Source of the DNA: Phycisphaerae bacterium
GTDB lineage: Bacteria; Planctomycetota; Phycisphaerae; WQYP01
DNA length: 64,000 bases
NCBI GenBank assembly: GCA_049977145.1
Contig: JBMFGW010000001.1
Location: 32,550 to 96,549, forward strand
Direction of reading: 5' to 3'
A program made the translations under genes and the position numbers. This document shows, one piece after another, positions 5,713 through 60,205 of this stretch. Numbering within the stretch: the stretch's first letter is position 1; every line of letters starts with the position of its first letter. The notes below the pieces were generated by a model. It saw only the letters and a list, made by a program, of their open reading frames with translations, made no database searches and was not told the origin of the DNA.

Positions 5713-6666
5713 TCATTGTTTTCGGGATGGAACAACCAGCGAGGCTCCGACCGCGAGCAGTAAAAGCGTAAGAATGACCCACAAGGATATCGTGGTACTG
5801 ATTCGGGCCGTGGGCCAATAAGCAGCGAGGAGGGGCAGAAGCATTTTTCCGCCAATAAACAGTAAAATCAACGCCAGCCCGGTTTCGAGAAACCGCAACC
5901 GATCCATCAAGGGAGCAATGAGAAAATAAAGCCGGTTCAGCGCCAGCACGGCAAACACATTGCTGCTGGTGATAATCAGCGGATCATTGGTAATGCCAAA
6001 CACCGCGGGGATGGAATCAAATGCGAACAGCACATCCACCAGACCCACCAGCACAATCGCCAGCAGCAAAGGCGTGATACACCGCCGGCCCTTGAACATT
6101 ATCAGCAGCCGCCGCCCCGACGGCGCGGGACTGATTGGCAGCAAATGGCTGAATATGTCAATGAACCGTGCTTCTGTCTGGCGCTGTCCAGGACGCCGGA
6201 AAAACATCAGTAGGCCCGCCAGCAACAGAAATCCACCCATGCAATAAAACAGGATGTGAAAGCGGGCCAGCAAGGCCAAGCCGGTAAGAATCAACACCGC
6301 CCGCGCTATCAACGCCAGCAAAACCGCCCAGAACATTACCAGCCCATGATCCGCGGCGGGAATTTTTAACGCCCGCAACAGGACCACAAACATCATCACA
6401 TTATCCGCGCTTAAACTCAGTTCCAGCAGGTAGCCGGTGTTGAACGTCAACAGTGGATGGAAGCCGACGGTGGATGATGGTGCGAAAATGGGAGTATAAG
6501 CAAAGTGCAAATAGAAGCCATAAACGAAGGCCAGCACAAGGGGCGGCAAACACAAACCGGCCGCGCGTATAAGTGAACTACATCCCGCGGTGGGTTGTGG
6601 AATCAGCCCATCGATGGCCAAGACCATGGCCGCAAGAAATAGAAATATCAACCAGGCGGTTATCAT
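5713..6666 (-). CDS. TerC/Alx-family integral membrane protein
   Basis: 317 aa, polytopic, with TerC signatures (ELSLSADNVMMF, GLVDVLFAFDSIPAVFGIT). Confidence 0.8.
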   Translation of the reverse strand: MITAWLIFLFLAAMVLAIDGLIPQPTAGCSSLIRAAGLCLPPLVLAFVYGFYLHFAYTPIFAPSSTVGFHPLLTFNTGYLLELSLSADNVMMFVVLLRALKIPAADHGLVMFWAVLLALIARAVLILTGLALLARFHILFYCMGGFLLLAGLLMFFRRPGQRQTEARFIDIFSHLLPISPAPSGRRLLIMFKGRRCITPLLLAIVLVGLVDVLFAFDSIPAVFGITNDPLIITSSNVFAVLALNRLYFLIAPLMDRLRFLETGLALILLFIGGKMLLPLLAAYWPTARISTTISLWVILTLLLLAVGASLVVPSRKQ

Positions 6667-14367: not shown

Positions 14368-15006
14368 TCATTTCTTCGCATTTTGATAAATTTCCGCAAC
14401 TTTGGTCCAGTTTACGACTTCCCACCAGTTTGCAATGTATTCGGGCCGTCGATTCTGATACTTGAGGTAATAAGCGTGTTCCCAGACATCCAACCCCAAA
14501 ACAGGCGTGCCGGAAAGTCCGCAGACCGTCTGCCCCATCAACGGATTATCCTGATTGGCCGTGGAACCTATGGTTAGCTTGCCGTCTTGGAGTACCAGCC
14601 AAGCCCAGCCGGAGCCAAACCGTTTGGCTGCGGCGTCGCTGAACCGTGTTTTGAATTCCGCAAAGGAACCGAACGTGGAGTTAATCGCCGCCGCCAAATC
14701 GCCCGTCGGTTCTCCACCGCCGCCCTTGCCCTTGGCGGCCATGATCTGCCAGAACATGGTATGGTTGGCGTTGCCGCCGCCATTATTCCGCACGGTAGTG
14801 CGGATATCCTCCGGGACTGCCGCCAAATTGCCAATTAAAGCCGCAAGAGATTTCGTCTCCAACGCGGGCTTTCCAGCAATCGCATTATTGAGATTGGTGA
14901 CATAACCGCCATGATGCTTGCCGTGGTGAATCTGCATGGTTTGCGTATCGATAATAGGTTCCAGCGCGCCAAAATCATACGGTAATGCAGGAAGTTGAAA
15001 AGCCAT
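14368..15006 (-). CDS. sod: Superoxide dismutase, Fe/Mn family
   Basis: [32 protein letters not shown] and DVWEHAYYL motifs. 212 aa. Confidence 0.9.
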
Positions 15007-52578: not shown

Positions 52579-53130
52579 TTATTGCTCCAGGTGTGACTTC
52601 AAGCCCTTGGCTAATTTAACTCTGCCGCGGTGCAGCCACGTTTTAACTTGGGACTCCGTCGCGCCCAGGATTTCGGATATTTCCCGGTATCCCATACCCT
52701 GTTGCTCACGCAGCACCAAGGCTTCGCGCCAGGCCACCGGAAGCTGTTGAATGTTCCGCCGGATCAGTTCCACCGTTTCTGCGGTCAGCGGTGCTTCCGC
52801 GGGGTCATTTTCTGTTCCTAAGCTGTCATATAAATCGTCATCCGCATCCAACGACCGGCCAATTTTTCTCCGGCGGCAACTGATAACATTACGGGCCACC
52901 GCTTTGGCCATCAACGACCACCCGCCATCATCCCAATTATAAGATTCGCAATGGCGGAATAGCTTCAGGAGGGCATCCTGAACAATATCCTCGGCCTGCT
53001 TGGCATCGCGTATTTGCACACCAAGCATAGACCGCGCTAAGGCAATCAGTCGGCCCATATTGGCATAAACAGCCGCCTCAAACTGTCTGCTTGCCGTCGT
53101 CTGAGCTGACATCCTGCTTCCTAGCATCAT
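52579..53130 (-). CDS. ECF (sigma-70 family group IV) RNA polymerase sigma factor
   Basis: Region 2 (DAEDIVQDALLKLFRH) and region 4 HTH (GMGYREISEILGATESQVKTWLHRGRVKL). Confidence 0.85.
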   Translation of the reverse strand: MMLGSRMSAQTTASRQFEAAVYANMGRLIALARSMLGVQIRDAKQAEDIVQDALLKLFRHCESYNWDDGGWSLMAKAVARNVISCRRRKIGRSLDADDDLYDSLGTENDPAEAPLTAETVELIRRNIQQLPVAWREALVLREQQGMGYREISEILGATESQVKTWLHRGRVKLAKGLKSHLEQ

Positions 53131-53494: not shown

Positions 53495-54847
53495 ATGTGT
53501 ATGCTTCCAATAGCGGTTAGTTCATTTTCGCCCACTACGATACTCATGCCGTACATGCCGGTGTTTTACGTCTCGTTTCTGGTGACCGTGCTGCTGACAC
53601 CGGTGATGCGCCAATTGGCCCTGCGTTATGGTGTGGTTGATGAGCCTGACGGGCGGCGTAAAATTCATACCCGTCCGATCGCCTATCTGGGTGGAGTGGC
53701 GACATTCATCGGTTGGATGTCAGGGGTGTTGGTTTCGGTGGTGGTTACACCCATTAACAGTGATCCATCTATGGTGGCTAAGGTTTGGGTGCCCCCCGGT
53801 ATTATTCTCGGCGCCGGTACGGTGGTGCTCTGCGGACTTATTGATGATGTGTACAGCCTTACCCCGCGGCTGAAACTATTCGGGCAATTTCTGGGGGCGG
53901 TGCTGCTGTTTTTTTTGAGTCTGGACCGCGCCGGATTTCTGGGCATCCGAATTGACCTAGCCAATATGTTTATTTTCCCGTTGGAACGCCGCGGGTGGAT
54001 TCCCGCCATCCAATTCATACACCCACAGATGTATATGCTTTTTGCCAGCGTGCTTAGCGCGGTATTGGCGATTCTTATTATCATGTCCGCCAGCAACGCC
54101 ATGAACCTGCTTGATGGGTTGGATGGATTATGTTCAGGTGTTACCAGCATCATGGCGGTTGGTTATCTTGCGCTGGCACTGTACCTGGCTTGCAACGGTG
54201 TGCCCTCCGCTGGTGTTGCATCAATGAACCCCACACGGATCACGCTTAGTCTGGCACTGCTGGGGTCGGTGTTGGGATTCCTGCCTTATAATTTCAACCC
54301 GGCCAGTATTTTCATGGGCGACACCGGAAGTATGTTCCTGGGATATGTCTGCGGAGCCATGATTATTATGTTTGGCAACGATGGCATATTCCGGTGGTTC
54401 CTCGGTGCTCTGGTCATTTTCGGCCTGCCGATTCTGGACACATTTTTAGCCATCGTACGTCGGAAACTCAATAACCGCCCGGTATTTTCCCCGGATTCCG
54501 GCCATTTTCATCACTTCCTGCTCAAGCGCGGTTTATCGGTCAAACAGGCCGCATTGGCGAGCTATGGTCTTACCGCCATATTCGTAAGTTTTGCCCTGGT
54601 TATTGTGCTGATCCCCACCAGTTTGGCGTTGGGTATTTACATGGTATTGTTTGTCTGGCTGGTAATCATCGCGTTCAAAATGGGCATGGTGTACCAGCAG
54701 GGCGGTAATCCGGCGGCGATTTCCTCCATCATTCCGCAGCCACCCGGAATTACCCAATCTGCGGGTGGTTCGCCATTGGAGCCGCTTTCCACGCCCGCGG
54801 TGCCGCACGATAAAGCAAATATATTACACGGCATCTTGAGTAAGTAG
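53495..54847 (+). CDS. Glycosyltransferase family 4 polyprenyl-phosphate N-acetylhexosamine-1-phosphate transferase (WecA/MraY family)
   Basis: Polytopic membrane protein with NAMNLLDGLDGL (the DDxxD-like MraY/WecA motif), and FMGDTGSMFLGY. About 440 aa. Confidence 0.8.
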   Translation: MCMLPIAVSSFSPTTILMPYMPVFYVSFLVTVLLTPVMRQLALRYGVVDEPDGRRKIHTRPIAYLGGVATFIGWMSGVLVSVVVTPINSDPSMVAKVWVPPGIILGAGTVVLCGLIDDVYSLTPRLKLFGQFLGAVLLFFLSLDRAGFLGIRIDLANMFIFPLERRGWIPAIQFIHPQMYMLFASVLSAVLAILIIMSASNAMNLLDGLDGLCSGVTSIMAVGYLALALYLACNGVPSAGVASMNPTRITLSLALLGSVLGFLPYNFNPASIFMGDTGSMFLGYVCGAMIIMFGNDGIFRWFLGALVIFGLPILDTFLAIVRRKLNNRPVFSPDSGHFHHFLLKRGLSVKQAALASYGLTAIFVSFALVIVLIPTSLALGIYMVLFVWLVIIAFKMGMVYQQGGNPAAISSIIPQPPGITQSAGGSPLEPLSTPAVPHDKANILHGILSK

Positions 54848-54893
54848 TCAGGCCAATGCTTGCAATCAAAATAATTGACGTAGTTTCAGGCTG

Positions 54894-55862
54894 GGTCAAG
54901 GCGCTCAAGTTAGCGTCAAGATCCGCAAGATGTTTTTGGGCGGCTGTGGCGGCGGCTGCCGCCGAGAGCAGGTGAAAAGTAGAGAGTTGAACAGTAGAGC
55001 AAATAGGGCTGGAACAAAAGAGTTGCTGGCGCTTGCTGGAAGACCCACCTGCGGTCTACTTTCTATTTTCTACTTTCAGGCGAAGCCGCCAGCTGTTAGA
55101 AGTCCTTTTCACTGATCAAAGAACACTGATCACGGATCAATATGGCGACGGGCAACGAACAACGATCAACGTTCTTTGCGAATTTCAAGGTGTCCAAGAT
55201 GCTCAAGTTCGGGGGCAAGGTGCTCAAGTTGAGCAAGTTGACGGGAGCGTTGATTCTAGAGGGTTTGGTTCAAGGTGCTCAAGATGCTCAAGATGTTTTG
55301 GCCCCCCAGGGGGGCCAGCATTTAGCATTGAGGAGTTGGGAGTCCTTTTGCAGTATTGGTCAGTATTATCAGTAATTGCAGTACTGCGCAATATTTGGCG
55401 TTTCGCTTCGACGGGTAACGAGATTGGTGTTGCAGTTGTGGCTGCGACGTGTGCTTGTTCCTGTTTAGGATTCTTTTCCGCGATCGCTGTGGCGGCATGT
55501 TATTGACTTTTCAAATCCCGGCCAGCCGGGATGCGGCGTCGGAACAATCATTTGTGGTTCCGGCGTCGTGCTGATGCTATAGGGGAAAGCGCGTGGCGAT
55601 AACAATTTTCACGGATCATAATGGCAACGAACAACGGGCAACGAACAAGGTTCTTTTCGAATTTCAAGGTGGCCAAGAGGGCCAAGTTAGGGAGGCAAGG
55701 GGGCCAAGTTCGGCAAGTTGAGAAAAGGCTTGATGGCAGCGGATTTGGTTCAAGAGGGCCAAGAGGGCCAAGATGTTTTTTGCCCCCCAGGGGGGGCGGC
55801 ATTTAGCATTGAGGAGTTAGGAGTCCTTTTCACTGATCAAAGAACACTGATCACGGATCAAT
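54894..55862. repeat. Tandem array of paralogous ~215-bp units in a 1.6-kb gene-free region, bounded by a 40-bp perfect direct repeat
   Basis: Full units at 55142-55350 and 55621-55830. A truncated third tail lies at 54894-54940. The bounding repeat is GTCCTTTTCACTGATCAAAGAACACTGATCACGGATCAAT at 55102-55141 and 55823-55862. Each unit has an ATG sORF, internal 9-nt-period CAAG repeats, a GC hairpin CCCCCCAGGGGGG, and agcatttagcattgaggagttRggagtcctttt. Confidence 0.5.
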
Positions 55863-56060
55863 GACGATGGTGAGAGACGATTAGCCACAGAGGGCACCGA
55901 GGGCACAGAGTTTACGGCACTACGGGGGACGGATTGAACCACGAGTAAATGAGGTAGGCGGAGGGGAAGCTACCAACGTGCGATGGGTGACGGGGGGCGC
56001 GGTTTTGGGTTACAGGTGACAGGTTACGGGCCAGTTTTTCAGTTTTCGGGGGAACGCGAA

Positions 56061-56347
56061 AAGGTGACATCCATCATTATCATCTTGTCCCCTGCTTTTT
56101 TGGTCTTCCAAACGGGTTCAGTGTGTGATCCAATCCCGTGCTTGCCGCCATTGTTGCCACCCAGTGCTCTTCTCCCAAGGGACGGGCGTGGTCGGCGTGG
56201 CGGCCCAGCTCCGGTCGGGGCTGCGCCCCTTCCTGCGCCTACGCCTGGCCGCCACGCCACTGGAGTATCGATACCAGGGCGACACTTCTACTTCGGCTAA
56301 CAGGGTGACATTTCTACTTCTTGACAACAACGATGGATGTCACCTTT
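56061..56347. repeat. 16-bp perfect inverted repeat (AAAGGTGACATCCATC / GATGGATGTCACCTTT) flanking a 255-bp GC-rich segment
   Basis: Arms at 56061-56076 and 56332-56347. The interior is about 68% GC and contains no convincing ORF. Lies upstream of the GH29-GH92 gene start region. Confidence 0.4.
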
Positions 56348-56461
56348 TCGTGTCCCCCTCTGGCAGATCATCGCCCGTGTGATCGATCAAGGCTCGCAGC
56401 TCTCGGCGGTACGTCTGGCTTCCACCGCCGCGCGCATCCAGGCCGTGGCGCTCAGAATGGG

Positions 56462-59400
56462 TTATCGTACGCTCAGCGATGGAGGCTCATTGGCCACACC
56501 AACACCCCAGTGCCGGTTCGGTTTTGGGCCGAGCATAAACTTAAGCGATCCGCCGTTTGCTATGGCCTTCTGGTTGAACCAGCATGCGCTATGACGTACT
56601 CGATCAATCCAGACGCTCTGAACGTACGTGTTGGCCGTGGTGGCATCCGGCGCCGTGATGGTGAATTCGCGTCCATGATAAGGGGGTCGCAGGTGGATGG
56701 TGACGTTTTTGAATACGGGGCTTGCCAGCACGAATGTCCCGCTCGCGGGGTCTACCGGATAAAAGCCCATCATTGCTAAAACCGCCCAGGACGACATTTC
56801 GCCACAGTCGTCATTGCCAGGGATGCCGTTAGGAGAAACCGTGTAGTATTTCCGCAAAAGCCGCCGGACAACCGACTGCGTTTTCCATGGCTCGCCAGAG
56901 AAGTTGAACTCGAAGGGAGCTTCCAGGTCCGGCTCGTTGTAGGGGTTATAACACCCTGGGGACCCCGCCTCCGCCGGCAGCTCTCCAACCATCTTATTCG
57001 ACCCGCCATGTATGGCCGTTAGCTGGGTCATCTGCCCCTTAAAAAAAGCGTTGAGGCGGTGGTTGAATCGCTCCCGCCCGACCGCATTTACCAACCACGA
57101 TAGATCGCACGGAGCGAGCCATTGGTATTGCAATGCTGATCCTTCCACAAACCCATGGCCTTGTAGAAGCGAGAACGGCTGTCTCCAGCCGCCGTTGGAT
57201 AGTCGTGGCCGGAAAAACCCAACTGCCGGGTCAAACACGTTGCGATAATAGAGCGCTCGCTTGAATAGAATATTTGCATCGTGCGTTTTTCCTAACGCTT
57301 TTGCCAAGTAATAAAGCGATGCATACGCGATACAATCTTCCTGAATCTGAGATACTGAGCCATAACTTTCATAATTGTCCGGATCATAGTGTAATTTGTT
57401 GATCCAGTTGATATTGCTTTCACCGGCATAGGGACGCTCCTTGGTAACCAAGCACTCTTTACCCAACCCCGCCCAGGCAACACGCACATCCGCCGGTTTT
57501 ATATGGCCAGAGAACGGTGCCCGCGTTGCGTCTTTGAACATGCCCCGCCAGGCCGCTTTGATATTGAAGCCATGCAGTCCATCCAAATAGGCTGTACACA
57601 TTACGGTACTCAGCGGGCTGCCGCACATGACGTTGGTGTAATGGTTAATCTGCGGCCATCGCGGCACCCAACCACCCTGTTCGTAATCCAACACAATAGA
57701 CTGACACATATCCTCCACGCGCCGCGGCGCGATTAATGCCAGCAGGGGCATTTCACTGCGGTAAATATCCCACCCGGAATAGTTGCAATAAAACTGATGC
57801 CCTGCCGCGACATGGTGTATCTTTCCATCAAAGCCCAGATACTGTCCATCGGCATCGCTGAAAAGACTGGGCATCAACAGGCTGTGGTATAGGGCCGTGT
57901 AAAAGACTTCGCGCTGCGGCATGGAACCGCCGGTAACGCGGATGACATCCAGCGCTTTATTCCAAGTTGCGTCGGCTGCATTTCGGACACAAGTGAAACT
58001 TTTATCGCCCACCTCCTGGTGCAGATTGTTTTCAGCGCCAGCCAAATTCACATAGGAAATGCCAACCTTCACCGTTATAGCCCGCGTATGAGCGGTTTTG
58101 GGCCAACTTGTATACGCACCAATCCACTGGCCCAATTTGGTTTGTTGCGCAGATCGTGACTTCGCGTCAACCTTGCCAATGCCGTTCTTACCGTTCCAGA
58201 TTCCACTGGATTCGAATGGCTCGCTGAACTTCATCACAAAATACACCGTGTAGGTCTGCCAGTTGCCGCAGAAGCAGTGGTTCGTCACCTGGCCTGTTAT
58301 CACATGGTTGTTGACCAGTTGAATCTTCGCACCAACGGTTTCGTTGAGAGTGTGGCTAATCGGTACCAACACATTGGCCCGCTTGCCCGCTGGAAACACG
58401 AAGCGCGCCAAGCCGCAGCGATCCGTTGACGTAAGATTGACCTGAATTCCCCACCGCTGGAGAATCACCTGATAATATCCCGGCGAGGCTGACTCGAGCT
58501 TATGGGAATACGACGATTGAAAATTCTTAATCTGAGTGTGTACCGCCCCGGTTGTGGCTGTGAAGAATACCTCCCCGGAACTCGGTGCGCCAGAGCCACT
58601 CATGTGCGTCATACTGAAGCCCTGAATATCCGGCTGATAGTAGTGGTAGCCCACCCCGTTCGATTCCGTATCCGGGCTTAATTGCACCATGCCGAATGGC
58701 ATTGATGCACCCGGAAAGCAATTGATGCTGCCGCCGGGGCCTGTGCCAGTTCCGATGAATGGATCGACATATCCTATCGGGTACTCGTCGTGGTCTTTCG
58801 TGACAGGCTTCACATCGCCCTTTATTTCCAACACAACCACGCTGGCCACCGGATCCGGTGCGGCGGCTGGTAGATACACCAGTTGGCCGTCGATCCCGGA
58901 TGCCGCTTGCAACTTGAGGTATGGATTAGCCAGCAAATAGGCTTTGGTAATCACATTGCGCATGGGCACGACCAAGGTGCGATTCTTTGGCCACTTGGTC
59001 ACTTCTAAAAACAGCTTTCCGGGCTTTTGGGTGGCGTAGCCATACGGCAGCGCTTTGGCAAACGGTGTGCGATGCGAGCCATAAATGGCTTCACCATTCA
59101 CCTTCAGCCATTTTCCTATCGCCAACAGGCGATCTACTTCAGGCTTCGGTATAACACCTTTGGCGGTGGGACCGACATTGAGCAGGAAATTGCCGCCGCC
59201 GCTGGCACAATGGATCAAATGATGAATCAGCGTGGCAGAAGATTTCCAATCATGATCCCATGAAACATATCCCCATGTATTGTTGATGGTCATGCACGTC
59301 TCCCATGGGCCGGGTAGCCCCCGCACCGGAATATTCTGCTCCGGGGTCATGTAATCCCCATAACCAAAACCGATGCGCGCGTTGAGAATTACTGTGGGAT

Positions 59401-60205
59401 CAATCCGGCGGATGTGAAAATAGAGCGCCTTGGCGTCCGCCCGGCTCCATCCATGCATCCATTCGCCGTCAAACCAGATGAGGTTGGTGTGATATTGCTT
59501 GATCAACTCACTGGTTTGCCGCTCCACATAATGCAGATAATCCAAATTTTTACCCGGTTTGAACTGTGTGGGATTATAAATATGCCGAGCTGGATTGGCA
59601 CCCGCCTGGTCCGGGCTGTGCCAGTCCATAATGGAATAATAGGTGCAGAATCGGATGCCCTGCTTCCGGCAAGCCTTGGATAACAGCGCCATCGGATCGG
59701 TATGCCATGGAGTACCATCCACCACATTGTAATCGGTGGCCTTGGTATTAAACATACAAAATCCGTCATGATGCTTGGTCGTAATAACGATGTATTTCAT
59801 GCCAGCGCGGCGGGCGATTTTAATCCATTGACTGGCGTTAAAATCAACCGGATTAAACCGCTTTGCCAAAATCGCGTACCGCCTCCGGCTAATCCGCGCG
59901 TTGTTCATAATCCACTCCCCGCCTCCCGGGACTTTTTTGCCATCCCAGACGCCGCCCGGAATCGAGTAGAGTCCCCAATGGATGAACATGCCAAAGCGGG
60001 CTTTTCTCCACCATTTCATATCGGCGGTGTGCAACTTATCCTTGGCGGGTGGCATTTTTCTCTTGGCTTCCCACCACGGTGTAGGGGTCGCTCCAGCAGC
60101 AGTATTTGCCGATGCGGCATGCGTGGGGCGAGCAGATACTATACACGCCAAAATCACCCATGCGGACACTAACGCTAAAAAAACCGCTTTCCCTGGCGTC
60201 ATCAT
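56462..60205 (-). CDS. Secreted bifunctional glycosidase: N-terminal GH29 alpha-L-fucosidase fused to C-terminal GH92 alpha-mannosidase
   Basis: Signal peptide. GH29 motifs ([40 protein letters not shown]). GH92 motifs ([49 protein letters not shown]). 1247 aa. Confidence 0.8.
   Translation of the reverse strand: [1247 protein letters not shown]

Follow-up and report, generated by a model that had tools for sequence, protein, structure and literature searches.

A modular, non-coding repeat family in the gap between two convergent genes of a Phycisphaerae genome

A 64,000-nt stretch of a Phycisphaerae genome (assembly GCA_049977145.1, contig JBMFGW010000001.1, positions 32,550 to 96,549; hereafter the window, with positions counted from its first letter) holds a cluster of short repeats in the 1.6-kb gap between a WecA-like gene and a GH29-GH92 glycosidase gene. 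We are close to certain that these repeats belong to a non-coding, clade-restricted, modular family of dispersed repeats. The family has several copies per genome, and all those found come from a few uncultured Phycisphaerales (Planctomycetota). The explanation that we favour, with a probability of about 0.6, is a selfish mosaic repeat, with modules that fold in a strand-specific way, derived from a miniature transposable element with inverted repeats (MITE), whose copy in the window would be a patchwork that does not move and affects the converging transcripts only incidentally. The family is ordinary in kind and, to judge from the searchable literature, in which we found no description of such repeats in Planctomycetota, it was previously undescribed in Phycisphaerales, whose non-coding DNA is almost unstudied.

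The repeats and their distribution

The two similar units recognised in the initial annotation of this DNA, at 55122-55349 and 55601-55830, are 79.6% identical across 230 nt (blastn E 1e-51), so these repeats are real. They lie somewhat further apart than was thought, with 251 nt between them in place of about 230 bp and about 480 nt from start to start. The identical 40-mer reported at the start of unit 1 and the end of unit 2 is exact (55102-55141 in the first copy) and is enclosed by a longer direct repeat of 47 nt with one mismatch (98%; 55095-55141 and 55816-55862), from which a 32-mer has two copies in the window against none expected from shuffled sequences. The three GATC sites of the 40-mer, described as lying within 25 bp, are located at 55114, 55128 and 55135, i.e. 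within 22 nt. A hairpin and a tail had been assigned to both units: the hairpin GGCCCCCCAGGGGGGCC is present in unit 1 at 55300-55316 and the tail 20-mer GCATTTAGCATTGAGGAGTT occurs twice in the window (none expected from shuffles), but the hairpin of unit 2 is a different one, GCCCCCCAGGGGGGGC. Across the 64 kb, the repeat region is the top hot spot of local 7-mer repetition.

A first search of genomes with the tail 20-mer, as an exact match and with one genome per species, returned seven true matches in two metagenome-assembled genomes (MAGs), Phycisphaerales clean5707 (five contigs) and Planctomycetota SKS5.bin63 (two), together with one chance match. Scanning metagenomes with the same 20-mer gave one true extra locus and four chance matches in an AT-rich organism, and seven further loci were reached through open reading frame (ORF) calls in ENA assemblies that are translations of the repeats. 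In total, 18 full units were aligned and about seven 5'-truncated ones were seen, at 15 loci in Phycisphaerales MAGs and metagenomes (loci are given L numbers below), with nhmmer E-values for family members down to 1e-51. Units occur as one to three tandem copies, in all cases within gene-poor gaps of 1-2 kb, and the genes flanking these gaps are unrelated between loci (RNase E/G, SIR2-like, AraC, GDSL lipase, helicase-nuclease, TPR, TPP enzyme). No match was found in phage, plasmid or viral collections. Rfam gave none at gathering score in the repeat region, the whole window or eight related loci, the only match with an E-value below 10 being a chance snoRNA, and a search of tRNA and tmRNA genes was likewise empty.

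Over the core of about 100 nt, units 1 and 2 are 72% identical to each other. The core of unit 1 is 89-92% identical to those of eight other loci, including L019, L023, L024b, L026, L027, L028 and L029, and that of unit 2 matches L010b at 85% and L016a at 82%. The aligned sequences fall into at least three subfamilies, and the window carries one subfamily I unit and one subfamily II unit. To call the two units tandem paralogues, as had been done, is thus misleading, as they are of different subfamilies and have closer kin in other genomes than in each other. In L010, a run of N at about 690-850 (locus coordinates; 1200-1400 of the reverse-complemented gap) lies inside a tandem duplication of about 110 nt, TGCACAGATTTTTCGACGACTAATAGCC..GGGATAAACTCC. 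The assembler broke within these repeats, so that copy numbers in MAGs are probably underestimates.

Coding potential

The initial annotation considered a duplicated small-protein family with a conserved N-terminus and proposed to look for homologues with a conserved reading frame in related genomes. The homologues exist, but they do not share a reading frame, and we regard it as highly improbable that the units encode small (60-77 aa), lysine-rich proteins with a conserved N-terminus. Both units in the window do have an ATG-initiated ORF, with the first ~23 residues alike, and frame f0 is open through the body in eight of the first ten aligned copies. However, when ten aligned copies were tested, every frame of both strands met a stop in at least one of them, nor does any frame remain open throughout the 14 aligned copies. 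In-frame stops occur in L015 and L019, the positions of the stops vary between copies, and copies differ by 1-nt indels, which shift the frame. The small ORFs (sORFs) of the window read homologous DNA in different frames after a 1-nt indel, and their protein identity is 37% (BLASTP) against about 80% for the DNA (blastn), which reduces the conserved N-terminus to a mere translation of similar DNA.

The apparent 'MAT(G/N)N..QR' N-terminus is, moreover, the translation of a separate module (ATGGCRACG followed by CAACG words) that stands without any unit in L011 and is missing from most copies, as most units directly follow another unit without an ATG leader. In this region we counted, by reading both sequences, about nine non-synonymous changes against one synonymous change. 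Changes in the words of the unit (see below) fall on all codon positions, the lengths of the T run and the hairpin vary between copies by single nucleotides, and a Pfam search of the sORFs gave no match. We conclude that the sORFs of both units are accidental, which removes two false small-protein candidates and explains spurious ORF calls in ENA assemblies, where P0121-P0129, predicted 'proteins' of 88-222 aa, are translations of the repeats.

Anatomy and folding of the CAAG-word unit

The CAAG-word unit is a module of about 175-185 nt with nine CAAG anchors at fixed positions, invariant or nearly so in the 18 copies. Its first stem-loop, hp1, consists of word C, an AGT loop and segment D. 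Over the 18 copies, 80% of hp1 cells are paired, against 18-43% in slid controls, the covariation score is 0.192 against 0.100 in shuffles (reached in none of 500), and two pairs exchange C-G for U-A. The second stem-loop, hp2, is a GC-only hairpin of 6-8 bp that follows CAAGNTGTTTT and is seen in 20 of 22 occurrences. Its stems are of three unrelated kinds (C6/G6; GGCCCC-TAC-GGGGCC; GGCGGC-TGTG-GCCGCC), and in all 22 occurrences it lies between GATGTTTT (left) and AGCATTT (right), the latter opening a tail of heptamer words (AGCATTT AGCATTG AGGAGTT AGGAGTT AGAAGAC). Both hp1 and hp2 are maintained by compensatory change.

The T run precedes hp2 and does not follow it, and hp2 is therefore no canonical intrinsic terminator. 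There was also no sigma-70-type promoter on the CAAG (plus) strand in the window or in the complete element at L015 described below. Of the earlier suggestion of a small RNA (sRNA) pair with intrinsic terminators, the stem-loops with compensatory changes thus stand, whereas the canonical terminators and a sigma-70-type promoter are missing. A promoter-like match on the minus strand inside unit 1 was discarded because, on sequence comparison, other copies do not conserve it.

In 14 of 14 units, folding favours the CAAG strand over its complement, partly as an effect of G+T composition. Hairpin B (55533-55571), which is part of a 'cassette' located between the two units, keeps three G.U pairs and a better fold on the CAAG strand in seven of eight loci. 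Together, the strand-biased folds and these G.U pairs make the single-stranded CAAG strand, as RNA or DNA, the likely folded species. A strand call from the wobble pairs of hp1 and hp2 was abandoned because the copies conflict (L011 for plus; L023 and L015 for minus), and only hairpin B is consistent. Hairpin B, GCGGCGTCGGAAC..GTTCCGGCGTCGTGC, has 11-13 bp, occurs in the window and in L013, L014, L016, L019, L025, L028 and L029, and shows a G-C to A-U swap. It also reads GGAAC-N18-CGTC, resembling a promoter for extracytoplasmic function (ECF) sigma factors, with GGAAC being at the same time one arm of the stem. An ECF sigma gene is found at 52579-53130, 2.4 kb from hairpin B, and the combination of the promoter likeness with this gene may be a coincidence.

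Concerted words within copies

Each unit carries, four to five times in front of CAAG, a 5-nt word of its own, which at positions B, C, E and F reads TGCTC, TGCCC, TGTCC, GGGCC or ATGCC. Of 420 word letters, 374 agree within their copy, compared to 297 +/- 7 when words are shuffled among copies (the observed value was reached in 0 of 10000 shuffles). The phenomenon is clearest between unit 1 and L026, which differ in 10 of 101 core columns: five of the ten differences fall on the corresponding letter of words B, C, E and F and on its partner in D (P 3e-6), with T,T,A,T,T versus C,C,G,C,C. Between L019 and L025, three of the five differing columns are word or partner positions. Because half of the differences between unit 1 and L026 form such a concerted switch, the word is not simply tracking the backbone of the unit, and the existence of intermediates (L029, L013a, L015) indicates that recombination between word types also contributes.

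The concerted set comprises four direct-repeat words and one inverted partner over about 90 nt. Concerted words could arise without selection, through slippage where direct repeats lie close together and through template switching at quasi-palindromes. Templated mutation of this kind would then keep the words of one copy, spaced by 9 nt, and their inverted partner alike, or else selection on pairing would, the alternative being that segment D is selected to pair with any of the words. Concerted words are uncommon, and the family offers a clean natural case for setting templated mutation against selection for alternative pairing.

Origin of the mosaic and rival explanations

We propose that a MITE-like, non-autonomous element, which some transposase would have moved in trans, has spread the modules as its cargo. 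In L015, a unit and its companions lie inside a complete 649-bp element with 20-nt ends at 2241-2260 and 2870-2889 that are 80% complementary, giving terminal inverted repeats of about 20-25 nt, and the flanks TCCTATC and TTCTATC are alike in 6 of 7 positions. A stop-to-stop listing of this element gave no ORF of at least 120 codons, and there is no conserved ORF in its CAAG unit. The end motif GGGGCCTGTGACAGATTCTGCCAGG, allowing up to six mismatches, has nine occurrences, all of them in element-bearing loci and at a mosaic border; besides the L015 pair these are seven single ends of the same kind. The modules may later have been reshuffled, tandemly duplicated and truncated via recombination at shared junction words such as AGTCCTTTT, and the window copy, without inverted ends, would be a fossil patchwork. 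Effects on the host would be a side effect of the hairpin-rich CAAG strand, which in the window would form a 3' extension of the WecA-like transcript, facing the end of the convergent GH29-GH92 transcript.

Several observations weigh against this origin. The end motif is not in the window mosaic, even with up to six mismatches allowed; L015 is the only complete element with both inverted ends, and its flanking duplication is imperfect. No empty site was found, nor can one be defined, because the WecA-syntenic relatives without the mosaic also have other downstream genes. An autonomous element with the same ends did not come up, no search being aimed at one. The carrier MAGs were read as 2-14-kb fragments, and at least five contigs of one MAG carry the tail 20-mer. 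In addition, the conservation of modules across genomes (85-94%), the compensatory changes in two stems and the G.U pairs that the cassette hairpin keeps on one strand suggest more constraint than would be expected of pure junk, and would suit a transcribed functional RNA equally well.

It is conceivable, though in our view doubtful, that each CAAG unit is an independently transcribed sRNA with its end at the GC hairpin, which would show its copy-specific word four to five times as a multivalent binding array and so act as sponge or scaffold. Transcription would be driven from the upstream cassette, either from CTATAGG ... GATAAY or from GGAAC-N18-CGTC inside hairpin B, and one and the same cassette does precede different word modules at different loci. 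The compensatory changes in hp1 and hp2, the strand preference of the folds, the cassette hairpin and the invariance of the CAAG anchors while the words co-vary are all consistent with such an RNA, and if the units are transcribed they would represent a new class of multivalent RNA. Against it stand the position of the T run before the hairpin, the lack of a sigma-70-type promoter on the CAAG strand of the window or the L015 element, the contribution of G+T composition to the fold asymmetry and the absence of an Rfam match; furthermore, hp2 is decayed in 2 of 22 occurrences and many units abut another unit or are 5'-truncated, without a cassette. We find it quite unlikely that the CAAG units are transcribed 'addressable' RNAs, each presenting its own 5-nt word four to five times on a CAAG scaffold and mirroring it in segment D. 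Such RNAs would serve as multivalent sponges or scaffolds whose specificity is programmable, the partners being other RNAs or a sequence-guided protein, and selection, not templated mutation, would maintain the coordinated changes of address seen at five sites (T,T,A,T,T to C,C,G,C,C).

The word arrays may also be regarded as binding sites in DNA, iteron-like or sub-terminal, for a transposase, a nucleoid protein or a regulator, with the invariant CAAG as the contact and the 9-bp spacing as the register. The fixed positions of the nine anchors in 18 copies fit such a role, and the unit of L015 lies 70-245 nt inside the left inverted end, a position that resembles the sub-terminal binding-site arrays of some transposons. 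We nevertheless consider it unlikely, given that compensatory change in both hp1 and hp2 speaks for folding of a single strand and not for recognition of a duplex, that the variable words are left unexplained and that the one to three tandem units lie at varying distance from any end. A switch controlled by recombination or Dam methylation, which the initial annotation had also raised, seems to us hardly credible. In this model the 40-mer direct repeats would serve excision or changes in copy number and the GATC triplet an epigenetic state. The 47-nt repeat, 98% identical, flanks 721 nt and could allow occasional deletion by homologous recombination, and the GATC sites are indeed close together. 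However, the GATC module is conserved singly, in other contexts, in other genomes; GATC is neither depleted nor enriched in the window (294 sites observed against 247 expected); the flanking repeats are direct and thus permit no inversion; and both neighbouring genes end at the gap, with no promoter or regulated gene start adjacent. A replication origin or a Dam cluster was rejected as well, in view of the ordinary GATC frequency and a GC-skew profile without a clear switch at the site, and a resemblance to IS91-type CAAG target arrays was dropped, having no supporting evidence.

Relation to known repeat families

The closest kinds of known repeats are bacterial interspersed mosaic elements (BIMEs), MITEs, pneumococcal BOX elements and intergenic heptamer repeats; by sequence and by defining tags, the family appears to be a member of none of them. 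BIMEs are clusters of repetitive extragenic palindromic (REP) sequences with other short motifs in enterobacteria and pseudomonads (PMC2817692, PMC3733652). Like BIMEs, the CAAG-word family is extragenic, often at 3' gene ends or between convergent genes, non-coding, clade-restricted and present in many copies, and it is clustered in mosaics of a few short motifs and GC-rich stem-loops whose modules are common to loci piecewise. REP sequences are imperfect palindromes of 20-40 nt that bear a conserved GTAG or CGTC at one end, are associated with REP-associated tyrosine transposases (RAYTs) and exceed 100 copies per genome. The family differs in that the hp2 stems are GC-only, with no GTAG or CGTC head in any of the 22 occurrences, that the hairpins do not alternate, all modules keeping one orientation, and that the modules are longer (up to ~180 nt) and built of 7-11-nt word repeats, some copies having terminal inverted repeats.

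Bacterial MITEs, which are non-autonomous derivatives of DDE transposons, such as Correia/NEMIS and ERIC (review PMC3184786), share with the family a small size with no gene for a transposase, dispersal in unrelated intergenic contexts and extensive predicted secondary structure; inverted repeats at the termini and a short, imperfect flanking duplication are seen in the single complete copy, the 649-bp element of L015. Most of the mosaics described here, however, have one recognisable end or none, and their interior is highly modular and variable in contrast to one conserved core. The BOX elements of Streptococcus pneumoniae are composed of boxA-(boxB)n-boxC (PMC3049150) and are similarly modular, variable in internal module number, restricted to a species group and strongly structured. 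They are thought to be parasitic, as we read the CAAG-word family, and in large BOX copies ORFs arise by accident on both strands and can lead annotation astray. There is no sequence relation to BOX, which belongs to another phylum and has fixed terminal modules, whereas the order here is looser and includes word arrays.

The TAACTGA intergenic heptamer repeats, which are direct repeats, have been described in Beggiatoaceae, Cyanobacteria and Bacteroidetes (PMC4679880). As in those, the family shows sets of two to six direct copies of 7-nt words in intergenic DNA with no assigned function, and the tail words and the CAACGAA, AATGAGT and GGAATCC modules have precisely this form; unlike those, it uses many words, sets them within larger hairpin-bearing modules and is not found just upstream of start codons. 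The STRR repeats of cyanobacteria are comparable intergenic heptamer repeats. Finally, multivalent protein-sequestering sRNAs of the CsrB/RsmZ type carry a short motif many times in and between stem-loops over ~100-350 nt. The family resembles them in the repetition of a short motif along a non-coding sequence with stem-loops, and departs from them in that the motif differs by copy, that there is no family-wide GGA in loops and that no promoter or terminator was found. An array of CsrA-type GGA sites was considered and rejected, as CAAGGATG is in only one copy (L010b) and is not a feature of the family.

Module map of the gap

Piecewise matches to other loci cover 1160 of the 1614 nt of the gap (72%), and all the modules described here are given on the plus strand. 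The GATC-rich 40/47-mer is a separate module type of the same repeat family and, besides the CAAG-word and GATC-word modules, the gap is made up of at least eight more module types. The series starts at 54893..54963 with a 5'-truncated CAAG-word unit, which retains the last words, GATGTTTTT and the GC-only hairpin GGCGGC..GCCGCC (-19 to -22 kcal/mol); nhmmer matches it at 54904-54953, and it resembles L019, L014, L015, L013 and L024. It is followed at 54964..55087 by a long imperfect hairpin module, in which a purine-word module GAAAAGTAGAGAGTTGAACAGTAGAGC is joined by a partly complementary pyrimidine-word arm CTACTTTCTATTTTCTACTTTC; L025 and L015 match at 85% and L024 at 78%, and by sequence reading it is collinear with L028 330-470.

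Copy 1 of the GATC-word module (55095..55141, 98% identical to 55816-55862) recurs in L011 (90% over 83 nt), L013 (87%), L019 and L016. Next to it, ATGGCGACGGGC and a CAACG-word module occupy 55142..55174 and yield the apparent 'MATGNEQR' N-terminus. In L011 this module comes after the GATC module with no CAAG unit present, and its number of words varies, with four in the window and two in L023. Unit 1 itself spans 55175..55349 (subfamily I and word TGCTC in multiple alignments), with hp1 at 55220-55236, hp2 at 55300-55316 and the heptamer-word tail at 55317-55349. The CAGTATT-word module at 55350..55395 is also found after the unit tail in L010, L014, L015, L023, L025, L026, L027 and L029. 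The space up to unit 2, 55396..55600, is taken by a conserved block and the 'cassette', with TATTGACTTTTCAAA, hairpin A (55517-55530), hairpin B (55533-55571), CTATAGG (55577-55583) and GATAAC (55598-55603). Block and cassette match L014 at 89% over 83 nt, the cassette recurs in nine sequences and hairpin B in eight loci. A long collinear match, L023 6820-7190 to window 55160-55528 (84% over ~380 nt), lies next to different genes in L023.

A shortened GATC module (AATTTTCACGGATCATA), ATGGCAACG and CAACG words, 85% identical to L011, stand at 55601..55653 in front of unit 2 at 55654..55830 (subfamily II, word GGGCC; 87% to L010 over 167 nt), in which the hp1 position (55700-55716) is weakly paired and hp2 (55782-55797) is followed by the tail. 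Copy 2 of the GATC-word module, 55816..55862, overlaps the tail end AGTCCTTTT and is 94% identical to L011 and L013. This overlap of the 47-nt repeat with the tail arises because modules share junction words such as the one just named. Elsewhere, the 47-mer module is matched at 94% over 51 nt (L011) and over 36 nt (L013), and also in L016, L019 and L023. Two further modules close the mosaic: the CACAGAGGGCACCGAGG-word (CACAGAG) module at 55876..55965, 77% identical to L024 over 91 nt, and the GGTTACAGG / CAGTTTT-word module at 55998..56047 (L011 86%, L016 85%), which marks the right limit. Comparison of junctions shows the CAACG leader, unit and tail to be either all there or all missing between GGATCAAT and TCCTTT.

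The cassette also contains a bipartite frame, present at 55501-55603 of the window and in eight loci, which reads TATT(C/G/T)ACTT(T/G)TCAAA, 40-170 variable nt, CTATAGG, 11-15 nt and GATAAY, and after which different word modules are found at different loci. The frame may serve as a portable promoter-like cassette or mark a site where insertions are preferred. At this frame, L015 has an insert of ~130 nt relative to L012, with GTCGGGA on either side.

Locus setting and neighbouring sequences

The GH29-GH92 fusion gene (56462-60205; Pfam Alpha_L_fucos and Glyco_hydro_92) is on the minus strand and the MraY/WecA-family gene, WecA-like, is at 53495-54847, so that the repeats sit between the 3' ends of convergent genes and not, as first thought, immediately upstream of the GH29-GH92 locus. 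By gene content the window belongs to Planctomycetota, near MAGs that bear the labels Phycisphaerae or Planctomycetia. In WecA-syntenic relatives (86-92% amino-acid identity), the repeats are absent and the downstream genes differ: a response regulator comes after a gap of ~970 nt in L001-L005, SmpB directly follows the WecA-like gene in L006-L009, and GH29-GH92 follows in the window (54848 onward). As the gene after the WecA-like gene varies in this way among close relatives, the mosaic sits at a synteny breakpoint.

Where the mosaic ends, a 310-bp segment starts (56049-56358) with 30-nt inverted repeats that are 90% complementary (GGGGAACGCGAAAAGGTGACATCCATCATT / AACGATGGATGTCACCTTTTCGTGTCCCCC). 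It has no copy in the other loci compared and looks like a second, unrelated MITE. Its right inverted arm abuts a relic, ~70 nt long (56356-56423), of an IS1634-family transposase gene, which reads LWQIIARVIDQGSQLSAVRLA and ends ~40 nt before the GH29-GH92 stop. Within the relic, 25 nt are identical to L014 1506-1530, in an intact homologous ORF that matches NF033559 at 3.4e-43. Taken together, the mosaic, the 310-bp segment and the IS1634 relic characterise the gap as mobile-DNA debris at a synteny break.

Another short repeat, CCCGTGAACGG(T/C)TAC.., is found twice in the WecA-downstream gap of relatives (L001 4480-4650 and L002 7720-7890) and once in L014 (~1005-1025), which suggests further repeat families in these genomes. 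Weaker hot spots of local 7-mer reuse in the window, at 14601-14850 and 6201-6400, lie within long ORFs and are probably protein repeats.

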